From contig CAVOZZ010000011.1 in NCBI GenBank assembly GCA_963701505.1, positions 91,551 through 155,550 of the forward strand: 64,000 nt of DNA. Direction: 5' to 3'. Below the pieces are notes generated by a model that was not told where the DNA came from, made no database searches, and saw only the letters and a program-made list of their open reading frames with translations. A program made the translations under genes and the position numbers. Of the stretch, positions 5,926-63,568 are shown in pieces; position 1 is the first letter of the stretch, and every line of letters begins with the position of its first letter. The stretch is from an uncultured Gammaproteobacteria bacterium (lineage in GTDB: Bacteria > Pseudomonadota > Gammaproteobacteria > UBA9214).

Positions 5926-7082
5926 CGAATGGCCTGTCGGGTGCGATGTGGATTTTCAATCAGGCCAAACCTGACAAAATCATCACCGTATTCACCAAAC
6001 CCTATACCGGGTGAGACGGCAACCTTGGCATCGCTTAGCAGTTTCTTGGAAAATTCCAGGGAACCCATTTCCCGATAGGGTTCCGGTATCTTTGCCCAGA
6101 CGAACATGGTGGCCCTGGGCACATCCACCGGCCAGCCCACTGAGTGCAGGCCGTCACACAGGACATCGCGACGTTCACGGTACATGCTGGCAATTTCGGT
6201 CACGCAATCCTGCGGTCCCTCGAGGGCGGTAATCGCGGCCACCTGGATGGGGGTGAACATACCGTAGTCCAGGTAGGACTTCATGCGCGTCAGGGCGGCA
6301 ACCAGCGTCTCGTTGCCGCACATAAAACCGACCCGCCAGCCCGGCATATTGTAACTCTTTGACAGCGAGAAAAATTCGACGGCAACATCAATGGCACCGT
6401 CGACCTGCAGGATGGACGGTGCCGTGTAACCGTCGAACACCAGGTCCGCATAGGCAAGGTCCTGGATGACCCAGATTTCATGTTCACGCGCGATCGCAAC
6501 GACCTTCTCGAAGAACTCCAGCTCGACACACTGGGCAGTCGGGTTACCCGGGAAATTCAGTACCAGCATCTTGGGCTTCGGCCAGGAATCCTTGATGGCC
6601 TTTTCCAGCTCGACAAAGAAATCCACATCCGCATGCAGCGGCACATGGCGGATATCGGCCCCGGCAATGGCGAAACCGTAGGGATGGATGGGATAGGCCG
6701 GATTCGGCACCAGCACGGCATCGCCGGGGCCAACGGTCGCCAGCGCCAGATGCGCCAGACCTTCCTTGGAGCCGATGGTAACAATCGCTTCCCGGTCGGG
6801 ATCGAGATCGACATCATAGCGGCGCTTGTACCAGTCACAGATGGCCTTGCGCAGGCGCGGAATGCCGCGCGACAGTGAGTAGCGGTGGGTGTCACCACGC
6901 CGGGCCGTCTCGATCAGCTTGTCAACGATGTGTTGCGGCGTCGGCTGGTCCGGGTTACCCATGCCGAAGTCAATAATGTCCTCGCCGCGTGCCCGCGCAG
7001 CCGCCTTCAACTCATTGACAATGTTAAAAACATAGGGGGGTAACCGCTTGATGCGGGCAAAATCTTCTATCACGCTGGACAC
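5868..7082 (-). CDS. class I/II pyridoxal-phosphate aminotransferase (AlaC-like)
   Basis: 404 aa, [13 protein letters not shown] lysine motif, typical partner of hom-thrC. Confidence 0.85.
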
Positions 7083-7215
7083 CGCTTATATCGTTGAATA
7101 TGAAAAGATTACAGTAATTGACCGGGACTGCCAAACTTCTTTATTAACGACATCAGGGCAGAGCACTTTTGCGGCTCTCTTGCCACCCTCTGCCGGCCTG
7201 CGTATCGTCTCCCTC

Positions 7216-7593
7216 ATGCGTTTTACCCAGGACTCTTTTGCAGGCAACAGCGATCCGCGCCTACAGCGACGGGGAAATCACGATCAACGACAGACGCATC
7301 GCGCAGAGTGTGGTGATCACAGCGGACAGTATCCGTTGTGGGAACCACGCAGCATCGATGAACTGACTGCGGTGCATATTGACCGGCTGGTCGGCTTTGA
7401 CCCGGAGATTGTCATTATCGGTACCGGCAGGCAACTGCGTTTCCCGCCACTGGCATTAACGGCCGCCTTGCAGGTCCGCGGCATTGGCGTGGAAGTCATG
7501 GCTCATGATGCCGCCTGCCGAACCTTCAACATCCTGCTGGCCGAAGACCGGCGCGTGCTGGCGGCGTTGATGATGGGGTCATCTGACCCGTAG
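7216..7593 (+). CDS. Mth938-like (DUF498) domain protein, interrupted by two frameshifts
   Basis: N-term MRFTQDSFAG in frame 0; AIRAYSDGEITINDRRIAQSVVITADSI in the +1 frame (ORF 7169..7366); C-term PLWEPRSIDELTAVH...GIGVEVMAHDAACRTFNILLAEDRRV back in frame 0. Confidence 0.7.
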   Translation: MRFTQDSFAGNSDPRLQRRGNHDQRQTHRAECGDHSGQYPLWEPRSIDELTAVHIDRLVGFDPEIVIIGTGRQLRFPPLALTAALQVRGIGVEVMAHDAACRTFNILLAEDRRVLAALMMGSSDP

Positions 7594-7631
7594 GAGCGCT
7601 TCGCAAGCGCGATTGCAGGTGCAAAAATAAT

Positions 7632-7663
7632 CGCGGACACAGTCCGCTTACATTATTTTTTTT
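7632..7663. terminator. bidirectional rho-independent terminator between convergent Mth938-like gene and rpoS
   Basis: hairpin GCGGAC-aca-GTCCGC followed by T-run on + strand and by gATTATTTTTg on - strand; two further short hairpins at 7596-7631. Confidence 0.6.
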
Positions 7664-7673
7664 CAAACCCGGG

Positions 7674-8514
7674 TTATTTCAACAGGGCGTCAACCGAAAA
7701 ACCTTCATGTTCGAGGATGCGTTTGAGCTTTTTCAGCGCATCCATCTGGATCTGGCGAACACGTTCGCGGGTCACGCCGATTTCCTGACCGACTTCTTCC
7801 AGGGTGGATACCGAGTAGCCGTGCAGACCAAAACGACGTTCCACCACCTCACGCTGTTTGTCACTGAGTTGCGACAGGCAGTCTTCGAGGTTGGATTGCA
7901 CGCCCTCTTCCTGCAAGGTATCGGTCGGATCCGGGGTATTATGATCGGCAAGGGTATCCAGCAGCGTCTTGCCGGAATCACTCATCACGCTGCTATCGGT
8001 TGAGGAGATACGTTCGTTTAACCACAGCATGCGTTCAACATCCTCAAGCGGTTTATTCAGCAGCTCGGCAATTTCCTCGGCACTGGGTTCATGATCGAGC
8101 TCCTGCGCAAGAGTGCGGGCTGCACGCAGATAGGTGTTTATTTCCTTGACGATATGAATCGGTAAACGGATGGTACGCGTCTGGTTCATGATGGCGCGCT
8201 CGATGGTTTGCCGTATCCACCAGGTACCGTAGGTCGAGAAACGAAAGCCGCGTTCCGGGTCAAACTTTTCAACGGCCCGGATCAGCCCGAGGTTTCCCTC
8301 TTCGATCAAATCAAGAAACGCCAGGCCACGGTTCATATAACGCCGCGCAATTTTCACTACCAGGCGCAGGTTGCTTTCGATCATGCGGTTGCGGGCGTCT
8401 TCGTCTCCCTGTTGCGCGAGCCGTGCAAACATTCACTTCTTCCTCTGCGGTAAGCAGTGGCGACGCACCGATTTCGTTCAGATAAAGACGGGTAGGATCG
8501 TGATCGGTGGACAT
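7674..8514 (-). CDS. rpoS: RNA polymerase sigma factor RpoS, one frameshift near 8430
   Basis: Regions 2-4 in ORF 7674..8432. Region 1.2 ([20 protein letters not shown]) lies in ORF 8311..8514 in another frame; an inserted g in ...gaagtgaatGtttgcacgg breaks the frame. Confidence 0.85.
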
Positions 8515-8725
8515 CGGTCCCTGGTTTGGGCCGCTTTACCGTGTGCCGGGCTGATCAGACCGATCCCCGGCCGAGGCCTGTCGCTGCTTCGCAGGCTGGC
8601 CGAGTTTTGCTGTTACTTGCTGTCGGTCGGAGTCCTTGCGCTTTACCACTGGCATCCCCGCCCTGTTCTGTACGTCCATGACTGTCCATGAGCAGACAGT
8701 CGTGTACCTACAAGCTCGATCACAG

Positions 8726-9598
8726 CTACTGCTTCGGCAAGTACCCCATAGGATCAGTCGGTTTGCCATTCTTGCGAATTTCAAAGTACAACTGGTTCCG
8801 ATTGGTGCCACTGCTGCCCATCTTTGCAATCATCTGTCCTGCCGAGACGTGCTCACCTTCGTTCACGAGCAGCGTGTTATTATGCCCGTATGCGCTGAGT
8901 AAACTCTCGTTATGCTTCACGATAATAAGCCTGCCATAGCCGACAAGTCCACTCCCTGCATAGACAACCAGTCCATTGGCAGCTGCGTTGACCGGCTGAT
9001 CGGCATGCCCGCCGATATCAATACCCTGTCTTGCCGGTAGCTGACGGCTGAAATTGACTCAATACCCGTCCCCGGGTCGGCCATACCCATTTGCCGTCAT
9101 AGGCGGGCGCGCTGGATTTCTGATTCGCTGCCGTGGCCACCTTGCCGACAGTCACGGGCGTCGCTGCGGGTTGCGGCGGCGGCACGCGGTTTCGGCGACC
9201 GGTTTGCGCAGCGGGCATGGCTGCCGGCACCGTGGCAGCTGCCGAGGACGCTGTTACGGCCGGTTGTGGCTGCAACGCCTGCGGCGTTGCCGGTTGCTGG
9301 TCGGCCGCCGGCTTCAGGAGCAGGCGCTGGTCTTTATAGATCGTGTAGGGTGATCGAATGTCATTAATGCTTGCAAGTTCCCGGTAATTCAGGCCGAGAT
9401 TCCAGGCGATGGAATACAGGGTGTCGCCGCCCTTAACCACGTAATAATCGGGTTGCGCGATTTGGCGGCAGTCGATGACGATCCTGATGCTGTCTTCGTG
9501 CCTGCGGACTGCTGATGAGTGCGCGAGTCAATCGGTGCATTGAGGTCCGGGTGAAGCACAGCCGTCAGCATGAGAACGGCGAGCAGAACCGGTAACAA
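8726..9598 (-). CDS. nlpD: murein hydrolase activator NlpD (LysM + M23 peptidase lipoprotein), at least 3 frameshifts
   Basis: Signal/lipoprotein N-term in ORF 9389..9598; LysM domain in 9018..9440; GIDIGGHADQPVNAAANGLVVYAGSGLVGYGRLIIVKHNESLLS...FEIRKNGKPTDP M23 region in the 8726..8920 frame. Confidence 0.8.
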
Positions 9599-9645
9599 TT
9601 GATCGGTAACGGGGATACATTAGTGGCGAAAATACAAAAATGCGA

Positions 9646-10196
9646 TCACCGCTGCAACCACCACCAGCCAGCCGATACGCTCGACATAGAGTACGCAGCC
9701 TGGCTTCCATCTCCGGACCGCCCCAGCTCATCAATCGCGGCGACCAGGAAAAACCGGCCCCCACGACCAATGATGGATCCGAGAACAAACAGCGGCAGGT
9801 TCATAGCGAGGGTGCCCGCCGCAATGGTGAACACCTTGTAGGGAATCGGTGAGAAGCCGGCGACCAGGATGGCCCAGAAGCCCCACTCCTCAAACCAGCC
9901 ACGTGCAGCCAGATAGCTTGTCCCAGTAGTGGCTCTCCTGCAACCAGGGCTGTATCAGGTCAAAGCCGTAATAGCCAATCAGGTAACCCAGCATGCCGCC
10001 CAGTACCGAGGCAATGGTGGTCAGGGCCGCATAGCGCCAGGCACTGGACGGGTTTCGCCATACTCATGGGCGCCAGCATGACATCCGGTGGAATCGGGAA
10101 AAACGACGACTCGGCAAAACTCAGTCCCGAGAGATACCAGGCGGCATGACGATGACGCGACCACTGCATGCACTTGTCGTAAAGGCGGGTAAACAT
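9646..10196 (-). CDS. DedA/YqaA-family inner membrane protein, frameshifted
   Basis: N-term [26 protein letters not shown] (ORF 9960..10196), C-term [19 protein letters not shown] (ORF 9646..9834), middle in a third frame. Confidence 0.6.
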
Positions 10197-10199
10197 GTG

Positions 10200-10860
10200 T
10201 CAGACCTGTCCTGTGAGCAGCGGCACGAAAGATCACATCATCAAGGCGTTCCTGCTCAAAGCTGTCACCGTTGCGCGTCACCACTATCAGTGTCTGGCGG
10301 TCACGCCCACCCACCGGGATAACCAGGCGCCCGCCTTCGGGTGACAATTGCTCCAGCAAGGCCTGCGGGATTGTCTCCGCGGCAGCCGTCGTGATGATGG
10401 CGTCATAGGGCGCAAAGTCCGGCAAGCCTTCCGTGCCATCCGAATAGCTGGCACGTATATTCCTGAGTCCCAGCTTGCGAAACCGCTGACGCGCCTGTAC
10501 AGCCAGTGGTTCGACGCGCTCAACGGTGTACACCTTGGGTACCAGCGACGCCAGCACGGCCGCCTGGTAGCCGGAACCGGTACCGATCTCCAGCACCTTC
10601 TGTGGATTAGCCCTGACCACCAGGTCCGTCATTACCGCCACCACATACGGCTGTGAAATGGTCTGGTTGTAGCCAATGGGCAATGCCGTATCTTCGTAGG
10701 CACGACTGGCCAGCGCCTCGTCCACAAACAGGTGCCGTGGCATATTACGTATCACATCGAGCACTGCCTCGTTGCGAATGCCTTCCTCTCGCAACCGCGC
10801 CACCAGCCGGTCGCGGGTACGCTGCGAAGTCATGCCAATGCCGCGAGTCGATGCATTCAA
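10200..10860 (-). CDS. pcm: protein-L-isoaspartate O-methyltransferase, C-terminal frameshift
   Basis: Full Pcm homology in ORF 10021..10860. Removing one t in the atcttTcgtg run restores ...[12 protein letters not shown]-stop, ending 3 nt before the yqaA-like ATG. Confidence 0.85.
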
Positions 10861-10886
10861 GACGCGTTGTTCCCTGCTACAGTTGG

Positions 10887-11631
10887 TTATTCGGTCAGCC
10901 AGCTGGCCAGTCCGTCAATGGCATCATACCGCGTCAGGTCTACGTGGATGGGCGTTATCGAGACATAACCCGAGCGCACGGCATGAAAATCGGTACCCGG
11001 TCCGGCATCCTGTTCGGCTACCCGCCGGACCCACCCAGTAGACCGGTCGGCCACGCGGATCCATCTCCTTGATGACCGGTTCTGACTTGTGACGATGCCC
11101 GAGTCGGGTTGCATGCATGCCTTTCAATTCACTCCAGGGTACGTCGGGGACGTTGACATTGAGAATGGTATCGGCGGGCAGACTGCCGGAGGTACAACGC
11201 CTCACCAGGTCCACAGCGACACGGGCGGCGGTATCATAATAGGTCGGCCGTTCCGTCACCAGCGACAGCGCAATCGCCGGAAAACCCAGGAAGCGGCCTT
11301 CCATGGCCGCGGCCACCGTGCCCGAGTACAGCACGTCATCGCCGAGGTTGGCGCCGGAGTTGATTCCGGCAACCACCATATCCGGCTCCACCTCCAGCAA
11401 ACCCGTAATGGCCAGGTGCACACAATCCGTTGGCGTGCCATCCACATAGGTGAAGCCATTGCTGCCCTGCCGCGCGCGAATCGGGTTATCGAGTGTCAGT
11501 GAGTTACTGGCACCGCTGCGATCACGGTCCGGTGCCACCACGTGGATGTTCGCGATTTCCGCAAGTGCAGCGGCCAGCGCCTCGATACCCGGTGCCTGGT
11601 AACCGTCGTCATTACTGATCAGTATGTTCAT
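10887..11631 (-). CDS. surE: 5'/3'-nucleotidase SurE, one frameshift near 11045
   Basis: [16 protein letters not shown] start; C-terminal [29 protein letters not shown] lies in ORF 10887..11114; a single inserted a (ggtAgccgaa) separates the frames. Confidence 0.85.
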
Positions 11632-11797
11632 GATGTCTGTACATGTTACTTCACACCCCTGTTCATGCCCCGGCGTGGCGTCCCCGCGTTCATGACGGGG
11701 AGAGTGGATGAATAATCGCCTCTTTGATACAGCCGCTATCACCGCACAACAAGCCGTGTAGTATAAAGGAACATTACACAAGGAAGCTTCAATCATT

Positions 11798-12345
11798 ATG
11801 GCTAAATCCAGAAAACCTTCGACCGACGAGATTGAGCTGTTCCGCCGTAGTGTCGGGCCGGTCAGGAAAATTCACCACGACAAGATCGTAGCCGGACAGG
11901 AAACCGCTGCCGTCACGGCCACGTCGACATGCGCGGCTGTAATGAAGCGCCCCTGACAGACAGGTTTTCGGATGGCTTTGATGATGGTGAGGTCACCGCG
12001 GACGAGGCCCTGTTCTTCGCCCGACCGGGACTGCAACAGCGGCAATTGCAGCGCCTCAAGCGCGGCCAGCTGCCAATCGGCGCCGAACTGGATATGCACG
12101 GCATGACGGCAGCCATGGCGCGTACTGCCGTGGTGAATTTCATCACCCTGTGCCGTGAACAGCATATACGCTGCGTGCGCATCATTCATGGCAAGGGCTA
12201 CAGCACAGCAGGCCGTGCACCGGTGCTGAAAAACCGTATCAATTCCTGGCTGCGGCAGCACCACGACGTACTGGCCTTCAGTTCCGCGCAAAGCAGGGAC
12301 GGTGGCAGTGGTGCCCTGTATGTACTGCTGCGATCAGGTCGCTGA
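11798..12345 (+). CDS. Smr-domain protein (SmrA/YdaL-like), N-terminal frameshift
   Basis: ATG 11798 gives [31 protein letters not shown] (SmrA-like N-terminus) in a different frame from the Smr domain ORF 11929..12345 (LDMHGMT...IIHGKG). Confidence 0.7.
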
Positions 12346-12374
12346 CCTACCCTGCTCTGCTGATTGATAAAATC

Positions 12375-12734
12375 CTAACGACCCATGCGCCGCTGGTAGG
12401 ACTGCGTGATGCGATCGATCAGCCCCGGATCACGCGAGGTGTCCCCCGAGGTATCGAACTGCAGCCGTACACTGCCGTCAGCCTGTCGTTGAACATTGGC
12501 AATGACATGAATCCCGTTGCGTGAACCTTGTATCACGCCTGCATCGCGGTCCTCGCTGCTGACACGAACCCCCTGATCGGCAAAGGCACCGACAGTCGCT
12601 GACCATGAGCGGTCGAATTTACTCACCGGGGAGGTAGGGCTGGTGGTATAGGTACCCGGTGCCGTCTGGTAGTAGGTACAGCCGCCGAGCAAGGCAATGC
12701 TGACTGCAAGCATCAGGATGAGTGGTTTATTCAT
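12375..12734 (-). CDS. small lipoprotein (LLGGC lipobox), function unknown
   Basis: 119 aa intact ORF with signal peptide and lipobox. Confidence 0.6.
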   Translation of the reverse strand: MNKPLILMLAVSIALLGGCTYYQTAPGTYTTSPTSPVSKFDRSWSATVGAFADQGVRVSSEDRDAGVIQGSRNGIHVIANVQRQADGSVRLQFDTSGDTSRDPGLIDRITQSYQRRMGR

Positions 12735-12785
12735 GGTAAACGTTGACCCCGCTGGTATTTGAATACTGGAGAATACTCACCTGCT

Positions 12786-13871
12786 TCATCGTTTTCCAGC
12801 AAGCCTGCCGTTACACGGCCCGGCCCGTGAACGCCGTCCCCAGCACCAGCTCACGCAGCACACTGGTAGCGTAGGTACCGGCCGGCAGACTGAATTCCAG
12901 CTGCAAGTCAGCCGTGCCATGCCATCTGCCAGGACAGCCCCTGCGTCATCAGCCGCAGCGCACGCCGCTCCTGTTTCAGCCCGGCTGATTCCAGGCCTGC
13001 ACACCAGTCCGCTGTAATCGGCAAGCACGGCTTGCTCCAGTGCGCGACATTCACCTTGTACCGGGATTTCACCCCGGCCATGCAGCGGCCCGGTGGGATG
13101 CACATCCTGGCTGTGCACACGTCCCAGCAGTTCTGCATCGATCGACCTCGGCAATAAAATAACTGTGGCTGCCGTCGAGTTGCATGGCATCCCCGTCTGA
13201 TCGGGGTATTCCAGGTCGCCGTGCTTCACGCGCCGGGACAGCACCTGGTTGAACAGCAAGGAACGCGCTGCTGACAAGGCCAGGCTACGCCTGTTTCTTG
13301 AGAACCGCGGCGCCGGCTTGGCAAACAGTCGCTGTGCATCCAGTAGATTGCTGCCGTCACGGCCGAAGCGTTGTTCAGCAAAATAATTCGGCACCCCCTG
13401 GCCGTCTATCCGGGTGAGTCTTTGTTCCAACTCGGCGAGATCACCCTCGATTTCACGCAGCATTATCCTGAAGCGGTTGCCTCTCAGGGCCCCTCGCCGC
13501 AGCTTGCGGGAATGACGCGCGTGCCGCAGCACGGTCAGGGTGTCCGAGTTCATGGCCTCCCAGTCCGGTGCATCGCGCCCCGGCATCTGTACCGAAAACC
13601 ACTGCTCGGTCACGGCCCGACGGTCCTTGAGACCGGCATAACTGACCTGTCGTGGATGGACGCCGGCAAACCTTGCCAGTTGCTCCGGCGACCCAGGGGG
13701 TATTTTCATTGCGCTTGCGCAGCCACAGCCAGACATGTTCCCCCTCGCCTTCCGGCTCCACCAGGGGGATCTCCGTGACGCAGAAATCTTCCGGTAACAG
13801 GCGCAGCCGCGCGCTGTGACTGCCGGCTTGCCATGGGCATAGGCAAGGGAATGGATGGCCTGGTCAAGCAT
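12786..13871 (-). CDS. truD: tRNA pseudouridine(13) synthase TruD, multiple frameshifts
   Basis: LAYAHGKP, NYFAEQRFGRDGSN core; EPEGEGEHVWLWLRKRNENTPWVA segment in ORF 13453..13761; RRALRLMTQGLSWQMAW C-term in ORF 12908..13138. Confidence 0.8.
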   Translation of the reverse strand: MLDQAIHSLAYAHGKPAVTARGCACYRKISASRRSPWWSRKARGNMSGCGCASAMKIPPGSPEQLARFAGVHPRQVSYAGLKDRRAVTEQWFSVQMPGRDAPDWEAMNSDTLTVLRHARHSRKLRRGALRGNRFRIMLREIEGDLAELEQRLTRIDGQGVPNYFAEQRFGRDGSNLLDAQRLFAKPAPRFSRNRRSLALSAARSLLFNQVLSRRVKHGDLEYPDQTGMPCNSTAATVILLPRSIDAELLGRVHSQDVHPTGPLHGRGEIPVQGECRALEQAVLADYSGLVCRPGISRAETGAACAAADDAGAVLADGMARLTCSWNSVCRPVPTLPVCCVSWCWGRRSRAGPCNGRLAGKR

Positions 13872-13892
13872 TGTATGGATGACCAGGACCCG

Positions 13893-14366
13893 TTAGCGAG
13901 TGTCGAGCAACACGACGGCAAAGGCGGCAATACCTTCGCCCCTGCCGGTAAAGCCGAGGTGCTCGGTGGTGGTTGCCTTGACGTTGACCCGCGAAGCGTT
14001 GACCTGCAGATCAGCGCTGATGTTGCCACACATGGCATCGATATAGGCCGACAGCTTCGGGGCCTGTGCGACAATCGTGATATCGACATTGACCACGGTA
14101 TACTTTTCCGCCAGCAGCAGCTCACACGTGTTGCGTAACAGGATACGGCTGTCGATGCCTTCATAGGCCGCGTCATGTGGTGGAAAATGCCGACCGATAT
14201 CGCCGAGCGCGGCAGCACCCAGCAGGGCATCGCAAAGTGCGTGCAGCACGACATCACCATCCGAATGCGCCTCCAGGCTGCGATCATAGGGCACGGTCAC
14301 CCCGCCCAGCACCAGCCGACCGCCCTGCTGGAAGGCATGCACATCGAAGCCCTGCCCGATTCTCAC
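13893..14366 (-). CDS. ispF: 2-C-methyl-D-erythritol 2,4-cyclodiphosphate synthase
   Basis: RIGQGFDVH...GHSDGDV motifs; probable GTG start at 14366. The annotated ORF extends upstream into the ispD C-terminus with no stop. Confidence 0.85.
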
Positions 14367-15087
14367 GATGGAATTCCTTGATTGCAGGTAAAAGGCAGCC
14401 AGCGGCAGGTCAGACGGCACCGTAATCTTTATGATTGTCACGCGCTCCCTGCACCATGCGCGGCCGGTAACCGGCAAGCTCCATCGCATTCGCCTCATCG
14501 GTCACCGGGTGTCCACGCCGATGGCCTGCTGCAAGGCAGTGCGCAATGCGCCGGCACGGAACATTTGCGGTGTATAGGCATGCCACAGGCCGACGCGATC
14601 GACCGTGGCCGAGATGCACACATCCTCATCGACGCGCTTCATGGTGTCCGCCACCGGCACACCCAGCAAGCCGCCCTGCCCGGTACCGTCTTCCAGCGTG
14701 CTCATCAAGACGTTCAATATCGTCCTGGCGCACACAGGGCCGGGCGGCATCATGCACCAGCACCCAGTCATCATCAGTGGCGCGAGCGGCGACGAGGTGG
14801 CCGAGTCCATTGAGTACTGAATGGCAACGCTCTGCACCACCGTCCAACCGTTTCCAGCGCCCGCTTCGCATAGCGCGTGCGCGTAGCTCCGGCCAGCGCT
14901 CATCTGTCTTGCGCAGAGCACCAGGATAACACCGGCAAGCCGCTGGCAGGACAGCAGCGTATCCAGCGTGTGTTCGAGTACGGTCCTGTCACCCAGTGTC
15001 AGGTATTGCTTGGGAATGTCTGCACCCATGCGCTTGCCCGCACCGGCGGCGGGGACGATGGCCCAGAATTTTGGGTTCAGTCTGCAT
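14367..15087 (-). CDS. ispD: 2-C-methyl-D-erythritol 4-phosphate cytidylyltransferase, frameshifted; no stop before ispF in this sequence
   Basis: [16 protein letters not shown]-loop, [22 protein letters not shown] (ORF 14626..14871), C-term [14 protein letters not shown] running directly into ispF. ATG at 15087 (MQTEPK) is out of frame because of an aaaa homopolymer. Confidence 0.75.
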
Positions 15088-15149
15088 AGTCGAACAAGCA
15101 CATCATCTGTGAAAGCTGGCACTGCTTCAAACCCGATGAAATATTCTTT

Positions 15150-15220
15150 GCCACGGAAGCACACGGAAATACATGGAAGATAACTAACCTTCAAGTAATA
15201 TTTCCGTGTGCTTCCGTGGC
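15150..15220. repeat. palindromic heptamer-array element, copy A (21 bp perfect inverted arms)
   Basis: GCCACGGAAGCACACGGAAAT ... ATTTCCGTGTGCTTCCGTGGC; CACGGAA/CACGGAA/CATGGAA at 10 bp phase; ftsB-ispD intergenic. Confidence 0.85.
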
Positions 15221-15244
15221 TATAGTATGAAAAGCCGGAGATCA

Positions 15245-16904
<1,660 letters not shown>

Positions 16905-16915
16905 TTATTTACAAA

Positions 16916-17756: not shown

Positions 17757-17785
17757 TGCTAACCGGTTCCTTCTGCGGGCAGTTG

Positions 17786-19454
<1,669 letters not shown>

Positions 19455-21051: not shown

Positions 21052-21058
21052 ATGCTGG

Positions 21059-50811: not shown

Positions 50812-50869
50812 GCAGTTATTATGGCCCCTGCACTTACCTGATTTTCACCGTACCTGGAGACAAGCTCAC

Positions 50870-51691: not shown

Positions 51692-51758
51692 TGTTTTTTG
51701 AAACGGACAAGAACGGTCACCGGGCCTGATTCAGACTCGCCCCGGAATCTTTCAAACA

Positions 51759-51836
51759 GTCACGGAATCCACGGATATAGTTCTGCCAAGGAATTTATTT
51801 TTTGTGTTTTCCGTGGATTCCGTGGCCTATTTTTAA
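51759..51836. repeat. palindromic heptamer-array element, copy D (15 bp perfect arms CACGGAATCCACGGA/TCCGTGGATTCCGTG)
   Basis: dapD-arsC intergenic; followed by TATTTTT. Confidence 0.85.
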
Positions 51837-51871
51837 CGTGATAAACCACTTAGTGGAATTGTAATGCAGCC

Positions 51872-53355
<1,484 letters not shown>

Positions 53356-53393
53356 ACCAGTAAATTCCGAAACACTCACCAGGAATAATAACA

Positions 53394-54290
53394 ATGGAAA
53401 TACGGCAACTCTCTCATGCAACGGTGTCCCTGCTGCGGATCGCCTGTTTGATTGGCACGGTGCTGTCAGTAACGGCCTGCTCCACAGGAAAGATGGTAGT
53501 GCGTGGTTCGCAAAGCATCATGGACAGCGGCATTGAGGCGATGAACAGCGAACCGGACCTGCAACTTGCCCGTGTCGCCATGCCAGCCAACCTGAAATTG
53601 ATGGAAGGCATGCTGCTGGAAGATCCCGACAACACAGAATTACTCTTGTATGCCGCGCAGGGATTCTACGGCTACAGTTACGGCTTCATCGAAACGGAAG
53701 ACCGGGCACGCGCCGGCGCACTGTACCGACGTTGCTATGGCTATTCAAAACGGGCGCTGGCGTTGCATGGCTTCAACATCGATCCTGAAACGGCCGCCCC
53801 TGATGAACTGCGCGCCGCTGTCGCCGGTGCCGGAAAGGAGGATGTACCGGCACTCTTCTGGAGCGCCTCCTGCCTGGGGAAATGGGTCGACATGAACCGG
53901 GACAATATTGCCGGCATCGCCGGCCTCAGCAATGTGGCGATCCTCATGCAACGTGTCATCGAGCTGGATGAAACCTATTATTACGGCAGCCGCCCACCTG
54001 TTCTTCGGTGTCTATTACGGCGGCCGGGCTCCCATGCTGGGCGGTGACTTTGCACTTGCCGAACAGCACTTCGAGCGCGCCGCCGAAATCAATGACAACA
54101 AGTTGCTGCTGGTCGACCTGCTGCATGCGGAATTCCTCGACCGTCAGCAGCTGGACCAGGCAGGCGTTTCACCAGCGACTGATCGGCATCCTGGAGGCGC
54201 CCGATGATCTGTATCCGCAGCTGGCGCTGATCAATGGCATCAGCAAGTACAAGGCGGCGCTGCTGCTGGAAAGCGAGGCGGACTGGTTTT
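53394..54290 (+). CDS. TRAP-transporter-associated TPR lipoprotein (TatT-like), frameshifted
   Basis: Lipoprotein signal VTACS; TPR-like helices over ORFs 53394..54047, 53908..54207 and 54008..54292. Confidence 0.6.
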
Positions 54291-55340
54291 GAACAACGCA
54301 GGCAGACCCGGCCCTGGCAAATTGTTCAGCGCCCTGTTGCTGTGCGCACTCGTGCTGGCAAGTACGCCACTGCAGGCCAAAAAGATCTATACCCTCAAGT
54401 TCGCAACGCTGGCGCCGGCGGGCACCACCTGGGTCAACATGTTGCAGGACTGGGCTGACGAGGTCAGAAGAGAAAGCCAGGGCAGACTGATGTTCAAGAT
54501 CTATCCCGGTGGCGTCCAGGGTGATGAACCGGATGTACTCAAGAAGATACGCTTCGGGCAGTTACAGGGTGGCGCATTCACCGGCTACGGTATCGGGCAG
54601 ATCTATTCACCGACTCGCGTGCTGGAACTGCCGTTCCTGTTCAACAACATCGAGGAAATTGACTACGTCCGCAAACAGTTCATGCCCGACATCGAGCAGG
54701 GTTACCGTGACAATGGCTATGAACTGCTCGGCTGGATGGAAGTCGGTTTTGTCTACTTCTTTTCACAACAACCGATTCAGTCGCTGGGTGACCTGCAGCA
54801 TCGACGCATCTGGAACTGGCAGGGTGACCCGATGGGCCAGGCCTTCTTCGATGCCAGCGGCCTGTCTCCGGTGCCGCTGTCAATCATTGATGTCTACACC
54901 AGCCTCTCGACCGGCTTGATCGATACCGTGTACGCACCCCCGCTTGGCGCGATTGCCATGCAGTGGTTTACGAAGACACGGTACATCACCGATGTTCCGA
55001 TGGCCAACGGCATCGGCTCGCTGATTGTCTCGCGGCGCTTTTACCAGGACCTGCCGCAGGATCTGCAGAAGCTGTTGAAAAGGACCGGTGAAGCAACCGG
55101 CGAGCGACTGATCAACGCCACCCGCCGTGACAATCTTGAAGGACTGGAGATACTCCAGCAGAGAGGCATGCAGCTGGTAGAAGGGTGACGAAGACCTGCA
55201 AAGCGGCGAGGTGGAAAATATCCGGATCCGTGCCGGTGAAATCCTGATGGCCAATGGTTACATACCGAAGACCGTCATCGACAAGGTCAACAACTGGCTC
55301 GCAGGACTATCGCGCCGGGAAAATGCAAGACTCCGTCAAT
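54289..55340 (+). CDS. TRAP transporter solute-binding protein (DctP/TatP family), C-terminal frameshift
   Basis: ORF 54289..55188 plus the C-terminal ~50 aa in another frame. Confidence 0.75.
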
Positions 55341-57101
55341 GTTGCCGAGTGAACCGCACTGGGTAACAAGCTTCCGCCATGCGCTCATGCGCATGGAAAC
55401 CTTCATGGCAGGCGCATCCCTGCTGCTGTTGCTGTCACTGGTTTTCGGGCAGGTGCTGGCACGTAATTTCTTCGAGTCAGGTATTCCGCAACGCCGACAT
55501 CCTGTCACGTTACATGGTGCTGTATGTTGCCTTCTTTGGTGCTGCACTGGCGGTTGAGACGACATAAACACATCCGCATCGATATCGTGGCGGCACTCAT
55601 GGACCCCCGTCGTATCAAAAAGCTGCAGGCACCCTTGTATCTCATTTCGGCGGTACTGTGCGGCATAATGACCTGGGCTGCCATGCGTTTCTGGTACGAT
55701 GACTGGCAGTATGTTGCCGAGCACGAACGCTGGTCATCGGTACTTGCACTGATTACACCGTTCGGTTTTTCCCTGTTGTCGCTGCACTTCCTGCTTGGCG
55801 GTTTGTTCGTACAGCCACCGGAAGCCCGTGAACGATTCATGACATTTGCGCTGATCGGGTTGCTGGTACTGCTGGCCCTGCTTGGCTTGCCCTTGTTTGT
55901 GGCACTCGCCGGTGGCAGTTTGCTGGCCACCTACAATGCCGGACTGGACCCGGCACTGCTTGCGGTTGAACTCAACCGGCTGGCCTCCTCACCGTACCTT
56001 GCTGCCATCCCGTTATTCACCTTCGCCGGCGTGGTGCTTGCGGCGGGGGGCGCGCCGCATCGCATGATCCAGCTGTTTAATGCCACTGTCGGCTGGTTAC
56101 CCGGTGGTATGGCGGGCGTCGCCATTGCTTCGTGCGCCTTCTTTACGGCCTTCTCCGGTGCATCCGGCGTCACTATTCTCGCGCTGGGGGGACTGATGTT
56201 CCCCATGCTGCTGCATGCCGGCTACAAGGAGCGCTTTACGCTGGGACTGCTGACGACCTCCGGTTCACTGGGACTGCTGTTCGCTCCAAGTCTTGCAATC
56301 CTGCTGTATGGCATCGTTGCCGGGGTCAGTATTGACGAGATGTTCCTTGCCGGCATTGTTCCGGGCGTGCTGCTGATGGTGTTGCTTGGCCTGTACGCGA
56401 TGTATATGGGTCGCAAGGCAGACGTCCCCCAGCACCGCTTTTCGTTTGCGGTTCTGGGCAAGGCCGCCAGTGAAGGCATCTGGGACCTGCTACTCCCCGT
56501 TGGCATACTCGTTGGCATCTTCGGTGGTTATGTCACCATCAGCGAGGCGTCTGCCTGTACCGCGGTCTATGTGTTACTACTGGAAAGCGTCGTTCACCGC
56601 GAGATTCACCTGTTCAAGCACCTGCCGGGATTACTCAGGGATACCGCCATTCTGGTTGGCAGCATCCTGATCATATTGAGTGTGGCCATGGGGCTGACAA
56701 ACCTGCTGATCGACGCACAGGTGCCCATGAAGATACTCGGCTGGATGAGTACCAATGTCGATTCGCAGCTGAAGTTCCTGCTGTTGCTGAATGCCTTTCT
56801 GCTGATCGTTGGCTGCATGATGGATATCTTCTCGGCCATCGTTGTGGTGGTGCCGCTGATCCTGCCAATTGCCGAGAGTTATGGCATACATCCGGTACAC
56901 CTGGGTATCATATTCCTTGCCAACCTTGAGATCGGCTACAGCACCCCGCCCGTCGGCATCAACCTGTTTATTGCCAGCCAGCGTTTCGGGCGCCCGATCC
57001 TGTCGCTGTTTCGCGCAGCCATTCCGTTCCTGGTACTGATGATCGGCTGGCTGGCACTGGTTACCTACATTCCGTTCATTTCCTTATGGTGGCAACCCTA
57101 G
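55339..57101 (+). CDS. TRAP transporter fused small/large permease (DctQM), frameshift in the Q portion
   Basis: DctQ-like 4-TM N-terminus (ORFs 55339..55557 and 55379..55567) followed by DctM in ORF 55524..57101. Confidence 0.75.
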
Positions 57102-57110
57102 TCGGCCGCA

Positions 57111-57848
57111 GTGACTCCCGGCCGGATTCCGGACAACGCATGCTACGACCCAGACACGTCAACACTGCAAAGTGTATCCTGGCTACTGACCTGTGTCGCA
57201 CTACTCTGCGGCTGCACCGACAGCACACCGCGCCTGCCGCAGCTGGCAGAGAACACAGTCATGCTGGCATTCGGTGACAGCCTGACCTACGGGACCGGCG
57301 CAAGTGAAAACCAGAGTTACCCGGCCGTGTTGTCACAACTGACCGGTCGCACCGTGATCAATGCAGGCATACCGGGTGAGGTGTCGGCACAGGGCCTTGA
57401 GCGCCTGCCGGCGCTGCTTGACCGTTATCGCCCGCAACTGCTGTTGCTTTGCCACGGAGGTAATGACCTGCTGCGGCGCATCAATACCTCGATCACCCGG
57501 TCAAACATCGAGGCCATGATCGAGACGGCAAGACAACGTAACATTCCGGTTCTGCTGATTGGTGTGCCGAAACCCGGTTTGATGTTTCTGGATACGGCGG
57601 ATATCTACAACGAGATCGCCGAGAAATACAAGCTTGTCTATGAAGATGAAATTCTGCCGGACGTGGAATCTGACAATGCGCTGAAGTCCGACCAGATTCA
57701 TCCCAATGCCGAGGGTTACCAGCGCATCGCGGCTGCCATCTACCGGTTACTGTACCAGGAGTGGCGCCCTGCCCTGATCCTGGTTCAGCCTGACAAAAGA
57801 TATTTTAGCCACGCAAGCACACGGAAAAACATGAAACATTTCTGCTAG
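57111..57848 (+). CDS. SGNH/GDSL hydrolase (TesA-like arylesterase/lysophospholipase) lipoprotein
   Basis: AFGDSLTYG serine motif, LLCHGGNDL block; the 3' end of the ORF reads into repeat copy E, so the true stop may be missing. Confidence 0.75.
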   Translation: MTPGRIPDNACYDPDTSTLQSVSWLLTCVALLCGCTDSTPRLPQLAENTVMLAFGDSLTYGTGASENQSYPAVLSQLTGRTVINAGIPGEVSAQGLERLPALLDRYRPQLLLLCHGGNDLLRRINTSITRSNIEAMIETARQRNIPVLLIGVPKPGLMFLDTADIYNEIAEKYKLVYEDEILPDVESDNALKSDQIHPNAEGYQRIAAAIYRLLYQEWRPALILVQPDKRYFSHASTRKNMKHFC

Positions 57849-57887
57849 GGTATTTTTCAGCCGTGTAATTCCGTGTGCTTCCGTGGC
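57808..57887. repeat. palindromic heptamer-array element, copy E
   Basis: GCCACGCAAGCACACGGAAAAACATGAAA ... AGCCGTGTAATTCCGTGTGCTTCCGTGGC; arms nearly identical to copy A. Confidence 0.85.
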
Positions 57888-57933
57888 TATCCTGTTTGTC
57901 TCAACAACTGCGATAAGCAGAAGGATCCCGGAA

Positions 57934-58630
57934 TCAGCTGCCTTTGACGACCGCCACATTGTTGCGCAAATACACGGGCACGGCTTCCTCCGGTGGCACC
58001 CTGACACCTTGCTGGAACGCCTGCACACCCAGCCGCGCCACGTCAGCGGCGCGCGGTTCAAGGTCCGGCAGCAGCCGAACCACCTGTCTACCCAGGCGTT
58101 GCATCAGTCGCTCACCGTAAGCGCCCCAGCCACTGCCGACACCCAACCCAGTCAGCCTGGCTGGACAATCCGGCACGCTGTCCGGGGTGCAGACACACTC
58201 ACTCGCCCTGCAGGACCAGGACGTCTCCCCGGTCCCGTGTAGCAGCCCCAGTAGATCTCGTCCTTGCGCGCATCCATGGCGGCCATCACCCGCGGCAGGT
58301 TCGATTCGCGCATGCCGCCCAGTGCCAGAGCCGCCAGTGTCGACACCGGGACAACCGGCAGCTCTGCCGCAAAGGCGATCCCCTGTACCATGCTGGCGGC
58401 AATACGAACACCGGTAAAGGAACCGGGGCCACGGCCAAAGGCAATGGCATCCAGTTGCTTCACCGTCAAACCTGCCTCCAGCAACAGGGATTCAATCATG
58501 GGCAACATCAAGGCGGCGTGTTGACGCGGCGCCAGTGCATAACGTTCCAGCACTTCACCGTCCACCGACAACGCCGCTGAACAGGCGGGGTTGAGGTTTC
58601 GATAGCCAGTAGTCTGAGTGACATGTGGAC
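57934..58630 (-). CDS. tsaB: tRNA threonylcarbamoyladenosine biosynthesis protein TsaB, frameshifted
   Basis: LLAIETSTPACSAALSVDG N-terminus in one frame, ORF 58152..58571, C-term ORF 57934..58176. Confidence 0.75.
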
Positions 58631-58786
58631 AGATAGCCTATTGCAGGATCAAGCGGCAGGTTCTGTGCACGATTGGAGCCGACAGCCGCAAAGAACGCAT
58701 GCACCTGTTGACGGTCACTGGTGCATGGCATCTGCGGCAGACTCTTCAGGAAGATACGACCGTAGGCCTTGCTGCGCAGGCGCGGA

Positions 58787-60594
58787 TCACATAATGACCA
58801 GCACCCCGCGATCGTGGCGGTCACGAATCAGCCGCCCGACACCCTGCTTCAGATTAATAACGGCATGCGGGTAGCTGGTAGGCCATGAAGGGATTGATGC
58901 CCTGCTGTCGCAATGCCTCGATACGTGCCTGCAGGATCGGATCACCGGGTGAACTGAACGGCAGCTTGTCAATGATGACACAGGAGAGCGCCTCACCACG
59001 CACATCGACACCTTCCCAGAAACTGCCGGTCCCCAGCAACACGGCATTACCCAGTTCCCTGAAGCGTTCCAGCAACTCCCGTCGCGGGGCAGTCCCCTGC
59101 ACCAGCAGCGGATAGTCGAGCGTATCGGCGAGCTGTGCCGCCGCTGCCTGCAACGCCGCAGTGGCTGGTAAACAGCACAAATGCCCGTCCGGCACTCGCC
59201 TGCAGCACATCACGCGCGCAGGCAACCACCGCATCCACATAAAAGCGTTCATTCGGTTCAGGCATGATTATCCGGCAAATACAGCAAGGCATTTTTACGG
59301 TAGTCAAACGGACTGTCCAGTTTCAGTTGCCGGGCACCCTCAAGCCCCAGTTGACCGGCGAAATGCTCGAAACTGTCACCCACCGCGAGGGTTGCAGAGG
59401 TAAACACCCAGGCACTGGACAGGTTGTCCAGGCAATTCCTGAACAGTGGGCGCAACATCCAGGGGGGTCAGGTTGAGGCGGAAGGAGGTGCGAAATGTCT
59501 CGAACCAGTGAATGTATTCACCGGACGCATGTTTCATCAGCAAGGCCAGGCGTTCGTTCAGCATCACGGCACGCACCCGGCAGCTCTCCAGGCCCTTGCC
59601 GCGCTCTGCGGCGAGCACCAGCCAGTCCGTCAACTGCTGCAGACAGGCGGACAATTGCAACAACGCATCCTGCAATGCCGGGTCGGCCGCGACCTCTGAC
59701 CAGGCTGCACGCCGGTCAGTCTGGCCCAGCGCCAGCCGCAGTTGATGCGTCACGGTTTCGAGCCGGTCTGCAGCCTCCGGCAAGTCCTGCATGTCACCGG
59801 CTTCGCGCACATGCTCCAGCCGCGTATCGCGCACCAGGTCACGCAACTGATGACTGCTCAGCGTGGTGCCGAAAAACACCGAGGCAACTTCGGGCAACTG
59901 GTGTGCCTCATCAATAATGAAGGCATCGGCACCGGGTAACAGCTCGCCAAATCCCTCTTCCCTCAACACCATGTCAGCAAATAGCAGGTGATGATTGATG
60001 ACGACGATGTCAGCTTCCAGCGCCTGACGTCTTGCCTTCACAACAAAACAGTCCTGGAAGTATTCACACTCCTGCCCGAGGCAATTCTCGACCGTCGAGG
60101 TCACCCGCGGCCAGATCGCGGAATCCTCCGGGACCCTGCCCAGCTCGGCAATATCACCGCTCGCGGTGCGTGCCGACCAGGCACGTATTTCTTCCAGCTC
60201 GTGCAACTGCCTGGCCGGATAACTGGCGGCCTTCACCGGCAGCGGTTCCCATACGATGCCAGCACAGGTAATTGGCCCGCCCCTTGAGCAAGGCAGACTG
60301 CACCGGCGCCTGCAGCGCAGCGCGAACCACGGGCAAGTCCTTGCCAAAGAGCTGGTCCTGAAGATGGCGGGTGCCGGTAGAGATGATGATTTTCTTTCCT
60401 GATTGCAGTGCCGGCATCAGGTAGGCAAAGGTTTTGCCGGTGCCGGTACCCGCTTCAACAATCAGGGTTTCATTTGCCGCGATGGTGTCGGCGGTTGCCT
60501 CCGCCATCAGCTGCTGTTCCTTGCGCTGCGAAAACCCCGGCACACTGCCTGCTAACGGCCCGGCATCCCCCAGCAGATCTGTGATTACGGACAC
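58787..60594 (-). CDS. DinG-family ATP-dependent helicase (YoaA-like), at least 4 frameshifts
   Basis: Walker A AGTGTGKT in ORF 60154..60594; helicase core in 59376..60347; VFTSATL motif in 59258..59458; C-term in 58854..59252 and 58787..59047. Confidence 0.75.
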
Positions 60595-60694
60595 TGGCAG
60601 ACAGCCGCTGATCAGCGAGCGCCCAGTTCCCGTGCACGCTGTTCAGCAGCAGCAGCACCCGTGCTGTCGTTCAGCTGCCGTCGCGCCTGCGCGA

Positions 60695-61189
60695 TCAGCA
60701 ACCAGTTGCGTGCTTGCTGGGCATAATTGCCGGGGGCAAGACTGTTTGACTTGCTCGGCCAGCTGCTCGGCCTGTGACTGGTTCGCCCTGTGAAAGCCGT
60801 ACCGTCGCCAGGTGATGCCAGAGGACAGGATTGCGCGGATCTATACGTATGGCACGCTCCAGTGATGCAGCAGCAGACTCCAGGTCACCGGCATTGGCCT
60901 GCTGTTCGGCCTGCTGCAGCAAGGCAACGACGGCCGGCGGCTGCGTGGCAGCCGTCACAGCGGTTGCCGTATTCGGGGCGGGTGCATAGCCAGGCGCATG
61001 TGGTTTCACCGCCGGCTGTTGGGCAGCTAGCCGGTTGTCCCTGCTCGACAACCGGCGTCGGCTGTCGTTGTGACGGCGCCGTGCTGCAGCCATGAACCAA
61101 CACCAGCAGCACAACAGCGACTGGCACACTGTAAGAAAGAGGCTAACTTCACTGAAATAACTCCTTGAACCAGTCAACCGGGCAGGCAA
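60695..61189 (-). CDS. TPR-repeat protein, possibly frameshifted
   Basis: LLQQAEQQANAGDLESAAASLERAIRIDPRNPVLWHHLA TPR-like helices. Confidence 0.4.
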   Translation of the reverse strand: MPARLTGSRSYFSEVSLFLTVCQSLLCCWCWFMAAARRRHNDSRRRLSSRDNRLAAQQPAVKPHAPGYAPAPNTATAVTAATQPPAVVALLQQAEQQANAGDLESAAASLERAIRIDPRNPVLWHHLATVRLSQGEPVTGRAAGRASQTVLPPAIMPSKHATGC

Positions 61190-61273
61190 TGCCTTTTCCC
61201 TTTCACACAGGGCGCATGCTGCACCGGTCCACTGCCGGTTATAAAGGGTAATTGTACGGCATCCGGGCAGTCG

Positions 61274-63479
61274 CTATCCGCCAGTAATCCGGTTTTCTGG
61301 ATCGATCCAGAGATAGTCGATATCTTCAACGGCCGGCTGTACCCAGCCGCTGTTAGTGAATTGCGTGAACAGGTCACGCCAGACACGCAGTGCACCACTG
61401 GTACCTGTCAGCCCGGTTGACTGGTTGTCATCACGACCTATCCACACAACACCGAGACGATCGCCGGTAAATCCGGCAAACCAGCTATCACGCAGATCAT
61501 CGGTGGTACCGGTCTTGCCGGCAACATCCACACTATCCGGCAGGGACTGGTAAATGCTGCGCCCGGTGCCCTCACGCACCACAAAACGCATGGCGGTGTT
61601 GATTAAAAAATCCGGCGCCGGTTCAATGGCTGACTGCACACTGAGGGGATAGCGCTGCAACGGGGCTTTATCGGCAGCGAGTACCGCATTGATGGCACGC
61701 AGGGGCGTGCGGAACCCGCCGCTGGCAAACGTCTGGTACATGTGCGTCACTTGCAAGGGCGACATTTCGACCGCACCCAGCACCAGCGAAGGATAGGGAT
61801 TCAGGTGTTGCTCCACACCCAGTCGCCGCAGTGTCTTGATAATGGATTCAATGCCCAGTTCCAGCCCAAGACGTGCCGTACTGACATTATAGGAATGTGC
61901 CAGCGCACGATACAAGGGCACCTGGCCGTGATTCTTCTTGTCATAGTTCCCGGGCTTGCCACACCGCGCCGTTACGCGCCGTAAACGTCAGATGGACTGT
62001 CATCCAGCAAGGTCGCCAGCGTGTAGCGCTTCGATTGTTCCAGTGCCGTCAGGTAAACAGCCGGTTTCAGCAAGGAGCCGACCTGCCGATGCGCATCCAG
62101 TGCGCGGTTGAAGCCTGCAAATGCCGGGTCACGACCACCGGCCAGTGCCAGCACCTCCCCTCCCTGCACCGAGGTGACGACTGCTGCACCTTCCAGCGTG
62201 CTGGCTTGCAGTCCACGGTCGCGTTCCAGCCTCCTTGAGGCGTGACCCCAGTACGCGCTCCAGTTGCCACTGCACCTGTGGATCCAGTGTCGTAAATATA
62301 CTCAGCCCCTCGGAGGTAATATCTTCATCCCGGTAGTCACGTTGTAACTGGCGACGCACCAGGTCGAGGAATGCCGGAAAGGTGTTGATGGCCTTTCTCT
62401 GGTAATCGCTGACACCCAGCTTGCTGGCCTTTGCCCGTGCCGATTCCTCCGGCTGTGATGAGTTCGAGTTGCGCCATCACATCGAGCACCAGGTTGCGCC
62501 GTGCGCTTGCACGTTCCGGGTGTCGTCTGGGATTATAGTAGGAGGGTCCCTTCACCATGCCGACCAGCAGTGCATACTGATCGATGCTCAATTCTGCCAG
62601 CGGCCGTTCGAAATAAAAATAACTGGCAAGCCCGAAACCGTGAATGGCGCGGTTACCATCCTGGCCAAGATAGACCTCGTTCAGGTAGGCCTCGAGGATT
62701 TCGTCCTTGTTGTAATGCCACTCCAGCAACAGGGACATGATCGCTTCATTAATCTTGCGTGTCAGTGAACGCTCACTGCTGAGAAAGAAATTCTTCACCA
62801 GTTGCTGGGTCAGGGTACTCCCACCCTGCACCACACCGCCTGCGCGGATATTCGCAAACAAGCGCACGCGCGATTGCCGCAGGTGACACGCCATGGTGTG
62901 AATAGAAGTCACGGTCTTCGATGGCAATCAGCGCATCCGTCAGGCTTACCGGGACTTCGTCGAGCTGCAGCAAGACACGGTCTTCATTGTGTGCCGGGTA
63001 AAAGCTGCCGACCAGCACCGGGTCCAGCCGTAGCAGGCTGAGTGCCGTTGCCGCTACCGGCAGCAGTCAGCCTCGCCAGTTTGCCTGCGGAAAATGTCAA
63101 GCGGACACTGGCGGGGGCATCCTGTCCATCCCAGAAATCAAAAGGCCGTGATATCAGGTGGAATTCATTATTGTTTCTTGAAAACTGACCGGATTCCCGC
63201 GGTGTCACCACAGGACGATAGTGCAACGCCTTCAACTCGGTCACAAACTGTTCTGCGGTCATCTCCAGCCCGGCATACAATTCCAGTGGACGCGCATAGA
63301 CGCGCGCCGGCAATGACCAGCGTTTGCCGGTGAACTGGTGGCGCACCTGGAAGTCCAGATAAGTAACATAAGCGGCCAGCAGAATCGCCAGCAGCAGCGC
63401 AGATACGGATCCAGAGGGGACGACGCGATACGACTTTCCGACGGGACTTTTTTCGCCCGCGTCTGCGGCGTTTGGCCAT
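61274..63479 (-). CDS. mrcB: penicillin-binding protein 1B (bifunctional transglycosylase/transpeptidase), at least 5 frameshifts
   Basis: N-terminal basic tail MAKRRRRGRKKSRRK; UB2H domain in ORF 62984..63346; transglycosylase GGSTLTQQLVKN in 62337..62927; transpeptidase KTGTT in 61274..61921. Confidence 0.8.
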
Positions 63480-63568
63480 TTGTGAAAATACCTGCTGGAG
63501 TTTGTGATTGAGGTTGCGGGTCATCATACCCGAATCGCTGAAAACTGCATCAAGCACCTTTTACGGGC

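Follow-up and report, generated by a model that had tools for sequence, protein, structure and literature searches.

The many frame breaks in the window, the whole 64,000-nucleotide stretch of DNA analysed here, are very probably consensus-calling errors, overwhelmingly spurious single extra bases, confined to strain-specific stretches of the assembled haplotype. The lesions are an artefact of data quality and not biology. The evidence comes from the distribution and type of the breaks, the state of the genes beneath them and a comparison with intact relatives.

Distribution of the frame breaks

Frame breaks were called by frameshift-aware protein-to-DNA dynamic programming, using as references the intact proteins of L083, L086, L087, L088, L089, L004 and L157, together with those of E. 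coli. Alignment to these orthologues yielded 114 frame breaks in the window, and one further break, at 63401, lies beyond this set. The breaks form two blocks (Table 1), with densities of 2.5 per kb in block 1 (7252-39006) and 4 per kb in block 2 (53985-63401), and reach 9 per gene. The identical procedure returned no frame break in recJ, thrC, hom and alaA (380-7073), nor from tsf to dapE (39007-53984), so that 22 kb of clean sequence were scanned without any event. Under a uniform rate, the probabilities of these event-free gaps are 2.5e-6 and 2.6e-12, respectively. In tblastn searches, the E. coli K-12 orthologues of rpoS, nlpD, surE, truD, ftsB, eno, pyrG and tilS, and likewise those of dnaE, rnhB, lpxD, bamA, rseP, cdsA, pyrH and mrcB, were each spread over 2-6 frames.

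Event positions in ispD, ftsB, eno and dnaE were recovered with two references each. For dnaE, the L004 protein (1168 aa, 80% identity) and E. coli DnaE agreed on the three one-base insertions, with no stop codon. In block 2, an Illumina-derived reference (L086) and a long-read one (L157) agreed to about 5 nt for almost all events. Both methods thus confirmed the dense frame breaks in essential genes, grouped in two blocks, that a first-pass annotation had reported; that annotation had also called for frameshift-aware alignment to orthologues and a count of indels per kb, which gave the block densities above and zero in the clean stretches. Positions that it had listed (7250, 7333, 8430, 9015, 9450, 10207, 11045 and 15072) lie within about 25 nt of called events (7252, 7338, 8433, 9029, 9450, 10230, 11019 and 15075). 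It was right that breaks are many, but its figure of at least 70 was too low, about 110-114 being called here. The region from 37.4 to 53.4 kb, described as nearly error-free, is so with one exception, the pyrH event at 39006.

Table 1. Clean and error-dense features of the window. Positions are those of the window.
Feature	Position	Strand	Genes or evidence
Clean block A	380..7073	-	recJ, extra 386-aa ORF, thrC, hom, alaA; 0 events vs L088 proteins
Error-dense block 1	7252..39006	.	78 frame breaks; tblastn and frameshift-aware alignment
Block 1 broken genes, part 1			DUF498, rpoS, nlpD, VTT/DedA, pcm, surE, smr, truD, ispD, ftsB, eno, kdsA, pyrG
Block 1 broken genes, part 2			tilS, accA, dnaE, GGDEF, rnhB, lpxB, lpxD, skp, bamA, rseP, dxr, cdsA, pyrH
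dnaE	22076..25597	-	three single extra bases near 23872, 23055 and 22130; L004 and E. coli DnaE alignments
Clean island within block 1 (lpxA, fabZ)	28690..30040	-	no extra bases; 98.8% identity to Illumina contig L154
Dense stretch (lpxD, skp, bamA end)	30041..32043	-	91.5% identity to L154; five extra bases
Single extra base in pyrH, final block 1 event	39006	-	L156 alignment
Clean block B	39007..53984	.	no frame breaks
Block B genes			tsf, rpsB, map, glnD, MBL-fold gene, DUF4403 gene, glyoxalase, EamA, dapC, dapD, arsC, dapE
Extra G in TAtT gene, opens block 2	53985	+	only gap vs Illumina contig L084
Error-dense block 2	53985..63401	.	36-37 frame breaks; two independent references
Block 2 broken genes			TAtT, dctP, dctQ, GDSL lipase gene, tsaB, dinG-like helicase gene, TPR gene, mrcB
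dctM, clean gene inside block 2	55839-57098

Type of the lesions and state of the genes beneath them

The 114 events comprised 87 one-base insertions, 10 two-base insertions, 12 one-base deletions and 5 two-base deletions, which corresponds to roughly 7:1 to 9:1 in favour of extra over missing bases. The two-base insertions are mostly two single ones a few bases apart. Isolated extra bases differed from both neighbours in 59 of 78 cases (76%, as against 56% expected, p = 5e-4), and only 3 of 56 extra bases lay inside runs of 3 or more. Homopolymer slippage was therefore rejected as the lesion type. The T- and A-run examples offered by the first-pass annotation among the clearest cases were unrepresentative. 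Around the extra bases no position exceeded 0.15 bit and no k-mer was prominent; with this motif search empty, a basecalling error specific to a methylation motif or k-mer is unsupported. Extra bases showed no codon-phase preference (slots 30/23/22; 16/14/8 in a strict set, not significant), and intergenic spacers contain them too, two of the five found by comparison with L154 being in the skp-lpxD spacer. The block edges fall inside operons, and the lesions are blind to gene boundaries, coding status and codon phase.

The genes beneath the frame breaks are under normal purifying selection. After frame repair, frameshift-aware alignments of the window genes contained no internal in-frame stop codon, the repaired proteins were mostly 80-95% identical to those of relatives, and dN/dS was 0.05-0.21 for broken genes versus 0.03-0.22 for clean ones. 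Gene-by-gene comparisons with relatives revealed no IS-like ORFs. Synonymous divergence (pS) from one relative genome was uniform over the blocks (0.38-0.57), and a deep chimera of different species was rejected on this ground.

If the mutations were real, the lineage would be decaying, host-restricted or dead and would have undergone massive pseudogenisation recently, which is very improbable. Recently host-restricted bacteria can hold hundreds of pseudogenes, with many disrupted genes per genome; this precedent and the presence of the frame breaks in the deposited sequence are the two points that speak for it. In such reductive evolution, however, core essentials are spared, nonsense mutations, deletions and IS insertions are mixed, and dN/dS is relaxed, none of which applies to the window. 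Here single-copy essential genes are broken (dnaE, pyrG, eno, accA, kdsA, lpxB, lpxD, bamA, dxr, ispD, cdsA, pyrH and tilS), nonsense codons, large deletions and IS elements are all absent, dN/dS is not raised, and block boundaries ignore gene function. The strong insertion bias outside homopolymers is moreover the opposite of the bacterial indel spectrum, which is deletional and repeat-associated, and sister strains at 99.2-99.8% identity are free of the lesions at the two sites covered.

That the extra bases are real and that programmed +1 ribosomal frameshifting, transcriptional slippage or RNA editing lets the cell bypass them is so improbable as to be negligible. Programmed frameshifting (such as the +1 site of prfB) and poly-A transcriptional slippage in endosymbionts do place a frame break inside a functional gene, but such sites lie at a homopolymer or a defined slippery sequence, and relatives share them. 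Nothing specific favours this reading for the window sites, which share neither a slippery nor a stimulatory motif, are not set in homopolymers, are conserved in no relative, occur in intergenic DNA too and reach 9 per gene, in patches running across gene boundaries. We know of no bacterial precedent for such a density of frameshift sites in patches blind to gene boundaries. More broadly, it is extremely unlikely that the living population truly carries more than 100 one-base insertions in essential genes within 40 kb, tolerated through correction at the transcript or translation level or produced by an insertion-specific mutational burst. The presence of the extra bases in living DNA is disfavoured at every testable point.

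Near-identical Illumina contigs and strain-specific stretches

The relatives compared were L083/L157, L086/L087, L088/L089, L154, L156 and, for the dinG-TPR-tsaB region, more than 20 JGI contigs. The broken genes were intact in every relative fetched, including those assembled from Illumina reads, with the exception of dnaE in the sister long-read contig L083, which has two or three frameshifts of its own, likewise of the extra-base type. No frame-break site was common to the window and any of these relatives. In the scan of genome contigs no relative exceeded 82% amino-acid identity, and a metagenome scan with the repaired block 2 polyprotein returned no near-identical contig, the best match being 93% identical in amino acids.

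Three Illumina contigs (L084, L156 and L154) were 98.8-99.8% identical to parts of the window free of frameshifts. The Illumina contig L084 was 99.76% identical over 47760-54029 and lacked the extra base at 53985, the sole gap in a 6270-column alignment. L156 (JGI 3300046048), 99.23% identical over 38063-39754, lacked the one at 39006, again the sole gap, and encodes an intact 237-aa PyrH. These two sites are the only ones covered at 99% identity or more, by contigs from other samples, which strictly speaking document the absence of the extra bases from a sister strain rather than from the window's own strain. L155 aligned without gaps over 29110-30016, at 99.0% identity. L154 matched the fabZ-lpxA island closely, then became 8.5% divergent exactly where the frameshifts resume; it has intact skp and lpxD and lacks five extra bases of the window (30083, 30306, 31120, 31126 and 31617), at a local identity of only 91.5%. 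With pN/pS at 0.14-0.15, the divergence of L154 in this dense stretch represents real evolution. The first-pass attribution of the breaks to assembly indel error rather than reductive evolution is thus upheld by the intact relatives, the missing internal stops, the normal purifying selection, the indifference of the lesions to gene boundaries and the near-identical Illumina contigs without the extra base at the two covered sites.

Clean stretches were 98.8-99.8% identical to a strain present in Illumina metagenomes, as against 91.5% for one dense stretch, and from these alignments the error-dense stretches appear to be strain-specific haplotype. The patchiness tracks strain-level divergence and is compatible with depth-dependent errors; a lower read depth is inferred for the dense stretches. 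The event at 39006 sits in a stretch 99.2% identical to the Illumina strain, so that error density does not follow divergence perfectly. On this reading, spurious single bases were added at about 0.25-0.4% of positions in the error-dense stretches, and stretches common to another strain at 99% or more are error-free. Presumably, strain-specific segments had low or mixed read depth when long reads were assembled or polished.

It is also possible, if rather doubtful, that low depth played no part and that a polisher placed reads of two haplotypes, assumed to co-occur and about 8-9% apart, on one backbone, producing net +1 insertions by keeping both alleles or by mis-resolving paired insertions and deletions. 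In its favour, a second haplotype 8.5% away is found precisely in the dense stretch that L154 covers. Extra bases also tend to be unlike the bases on either side, which would suit a retained alternative allele, and L084 stops 44 nt past the opening event of block 2, where a branch in the assembly graph would be expected to end it. Haplotype differences are mostly synonymous, yet the extra bases showed no excess next to third codon positions in either the full or the strict set. This codon-slot distribution leaves the conversion of strain SNPs into insertions unsupported as the main mechanism.

Comparison with known long-read assembly errors, and practical consequences

Frameshift errors that truncate genes have been documented as an artefact of metagenome assembly from long reads, especially for low-coverage complex samples (PMC13087279; PMC12007338). 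As in the window, one-base indels fragment conserved genes in nanopore and PacBio assemblies, where they are revealed by IDEEL-type length-ratio tests; the effect is stronger in samples of low coverage, high complexity and strain diversity, and polishing with accurate reads removes it (PMC13087279; PMC12007338). The dominant assembly error is, however, reported to be the homopolymer-associated deletion (PMC12007338). The window does not show this classical nanopore profile, with 87 insertions versus 12 deletions of one base, most isolated extra bases unlike both neighbours and no motif. Its errors also come in sharply bounded blocks, which coincide with strain-specific sequence. A literature search on polisher artefacts biased to insertions returned only general statements. 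The window belongs to a 312,957-bp contig of a public metagenome assembly, from an uncultured gammaproteobacterium. A Flye-type long-read origin is suggested only by the length of this contig and the naming of the sister contig; contigs with names of this style come out of the Flye plus Medaka pipeline described in the Microflora Danica long-read paper.

The biological importance of the frame breaks is nil, since the genes concerned are ordinary conserved housekeeping genes. In practice they matter to a modest degree: about 100 spurious gene fragments arise from the deposited contig, and such fragments inflate the counts of pseudogenes and novel short proteins and make completeness appear lower. 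At least the two fragments looked up, DapE and a DnaE piece of 581 aa, can already be found in public protein collections. A spectrum biased to insertions outside homopolymers, and its link to strain-specific stretches, are useful warning signs. In a long-read metagenome-assembled genome, frameshift density that jumps from one block to the next may mark a low-depth or strain-switched stretch.

Frame breaks along the window

The window is a conserved gammaproteobacterial housekeeping region, whose genes were named from synteny and similarity to E. coli K-12, together with Pfam calls on the same genes in related contigs. Their order is recJ, thrC, hom, alaA, rpoS, nlpD, pcm, surE, truD, ispF, ispD, ftsB, eno, kdsA, pyrG, tilS, accA, dnaE, rnhB, lpxB, lpxA, fabZ, lpxD, skp, bamA, rseP, dxr, cdsA, uppS, frr, pyrH, tsf, rpsB, map, glnD, dapC, dapD, dapE, a TRAP transporter set (TAtT, dctP, dctQ, dctM), tsaB, a dinG-like helicase gene and mrcB. 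The nearest named relatives are uncultured Gammaproteobacteria MAGs, with DnaE identity of at most 82%. Protein fragments from the window are present in public collections, on one 312,957-bp contig (NCBI, ENA), indicating that the frameshifts are part of the record as deposited and not a later addition.

A tblastn search with E. coli proteins found many window genes scattered across several frames. Frame breaks were counted by aligning proteins of syntenic relatives with intact genes to the window, using our own frameshift-aware dynamic programming. The references were L083 and L157 (a single 248,709-bp ENA contig, 'contig_17625', ~83% nucleotide identity to the window), the JGI contigs L086 and L087 (~85.5%) and L088 and L089 (72-80%), and L004, an MFD Illumina MAG. 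This analysis confirmed that the genes are broken and yielded 114 events (87 single extra, 10 double extra, 12 single missing and 5 double missing bases), with one further event at 63401; the first-pass annotation, whose listed sites match the aligned positions, had counted at least 70, which was too low. Where DNA alignment to closer relatives resolves a double extra base, it mostly proves to be a pair of singles with a few bases between them. Event positions were concordant across independent references in ispD, ftsB, eno and dnaE and over almost the whole of the second dense block.

Event density was 2.5 per kb in 7252-39006 and 4 per kb in 53985-63401. The same alignment detected zero events in 380-7073 and 39007-53984, so that its false-positive rate is negligible, and these event-free gaps are not due to chance (P = 2.5e-6 and 2.6e-12).

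Lesion spectrum and selection on the repaired genes

When 78 isolated one-base extra bases were placed against the two closest references, 59 (76%) were unlike both neighbours (random expectation 56%, p = 5e-4), and just 3 of 56 coding events lay in runs of at least three. The few missing bases were not in homopolymers either. The T- and A-run examples first put forward as the clearest (pcm near 10230, ispD near 15070) are real lesions but atypical of the set. Programmed frameshifting or editing fails as an explanation of the breaks, since the extra bases show no motif (flanking positions all ≤0.15 bit, no k-mer prominent), the sites are not conserved and intergenic spacers are also hit (31120, 31126).

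Real pseudogenisation fails as well. The broken genes are essential, and the sister strains compared are without the lesions. The mutational spectrum is also wrong, natural bacterial indels showing the opposite of a strong insertion bias outside repeats. A natural process leaving ~110 indels is expected to bring about ten times as many substitutions, dozens of nonsense codons among them. No such codon was found in the repaired genes: after frameshift removal, none had internal stops, and stop codons in the alignments occurred at gene ends only. Repaired proteins were mostly 80-95% identical to those of relatives, and dN/dS was 0.05-0.21 for broken and 0.03-0.22 for unbroken genes, a selection signal contrary to decay. 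We consider that these two biological explanations have, even jointly, almost no chance of being correct; the frame breaks are not a biological feature.

Near-identical contigs and origin of the extra bases

Four short contigs, all from JGI, were retrieved by exact-protein look-ups. Over 47760-54029, L084 (6269 bp) matches the window at 99.76% identity with a single gap, at the extra G (53985) that is the second dense block's first event. L156 (1691 bp) aligns to 38063-39754 at 99.23% identity, with an intact pyrH and a sole gap at the extra base at 39006, and L155 (907 bp) shows 99.0% identity and zero gaps inside the clean fabZ-lpxA island. Most informative is L154 (3395 bp), which comes from the L084 sample. 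Its identity to the window is 98.8% across 28690-30040, a frameshift-free island in the first dense block, and only 91.5% across 30041-32043; in this second stretch the window carries five extra bases, and the skp and lpxD of L154 are intact. The divergence there reflects genuine evolution, not noise (pN/pS 0.14-0.15). Wherever testable, clean sequence is common to a strain seen elsewhere, and the dense stretches belong to another haplotype, one specific to the strain.

Over 28646-32043 the comparison with L154 reveals a strain mosaic (~99% identity in fabZ-lpxA, 8.5% mostly synonymous divergence in lpxD-skp-bamA), reflecting either recombination among lineages that co-exist or a switch of strain within one assembly or the other. 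A cross-species chimera was rejected because pS against one relative genome is uniform over all blocks (0.38-0.57).

The extra bases are most likely consensus errors of metagenome assembly, as first proposed, with the lesion spectrum corrected and a link to strain-specific stretches added. Such stretches may have received reads from one strain only, at low depth, or mixed reads of two haplotypes, while pooled depth over shared stretches would give an accurate consensus. Conversion of heterozygous SNPs to insertions is not supported by the codon slots of the extra bases (30/23/22). The length of the contig, the Flye-style naming of its sister and the frameshifts in the sister dnaE point to a long-read origin. 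Two or three frameshifts interrupt the sister dnaE; they too are extra bases, at far lower density than in the window, and the 43 kb examined is otherwise clean. In L083 the gene (11765-13335) falls into pieces of 800, 327 and 66 aa, with one extra base each at ~12215 and ~13335. Long-read metagenome assemblies are well known to truncate genes through frameshifts, the more so in complex samples (PMC13087279), although the window lacks the usual profile of homopolymer deletions (PMC12007338).

Other features of the region

The REP-like 16-mer TTCCGTGTGCTTCCGT forms inverted pairs in intergenic spacers (5 matches, 0.03 expected), and L083 and L086 have related motifs at the corresponding positions. 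Ribosomal protein S2 has 295 or 313 aa (window, L087) compared with 241 aa in E. coli, the tails being far longer.

Additional features of the window, by position
Feature	Position	Strand	Observation
386-aa ORF	2094-3254	-	Intact, between recJ and thrC; missing in L088, L089; Pfam PhosphMutase match below threshold only
TTCCGTGTGCTTCCGT pair	15153-15168/15202-15217		
rpsB 3' end	40603-40660		S2 C-terminal tail lacks 54 nt relative to L087, as two in-frame gaps (42 + 12 nt)
t44 RNA	41514-41629	-	Rfam RF00127, 62.7 bits; upstream of rpsB; same arrangement in E. coli (tff-rpsB)
Variable locus	45228-48141		glnD to glyoxalase gene; empty in L087; L157 carries three genes (Pfam domains Hydrolase, ARD, Aldolase_II)
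MBL-fold hydrolase gene	45510-46406		Variable locus, window version
DUF4403 gene	46614-48089		Variable locus, window version
TTCCGTGTGCTTCCGT site	49499-49514		
TTCCGTGTGCTTCCGT pair	57811-57826/57869-57884		
Small ORF	63620-63922	-	PEP-CTERM sorting motif (PF07589, 21.9 bits, cutoff 20.7); adjoins mrcB
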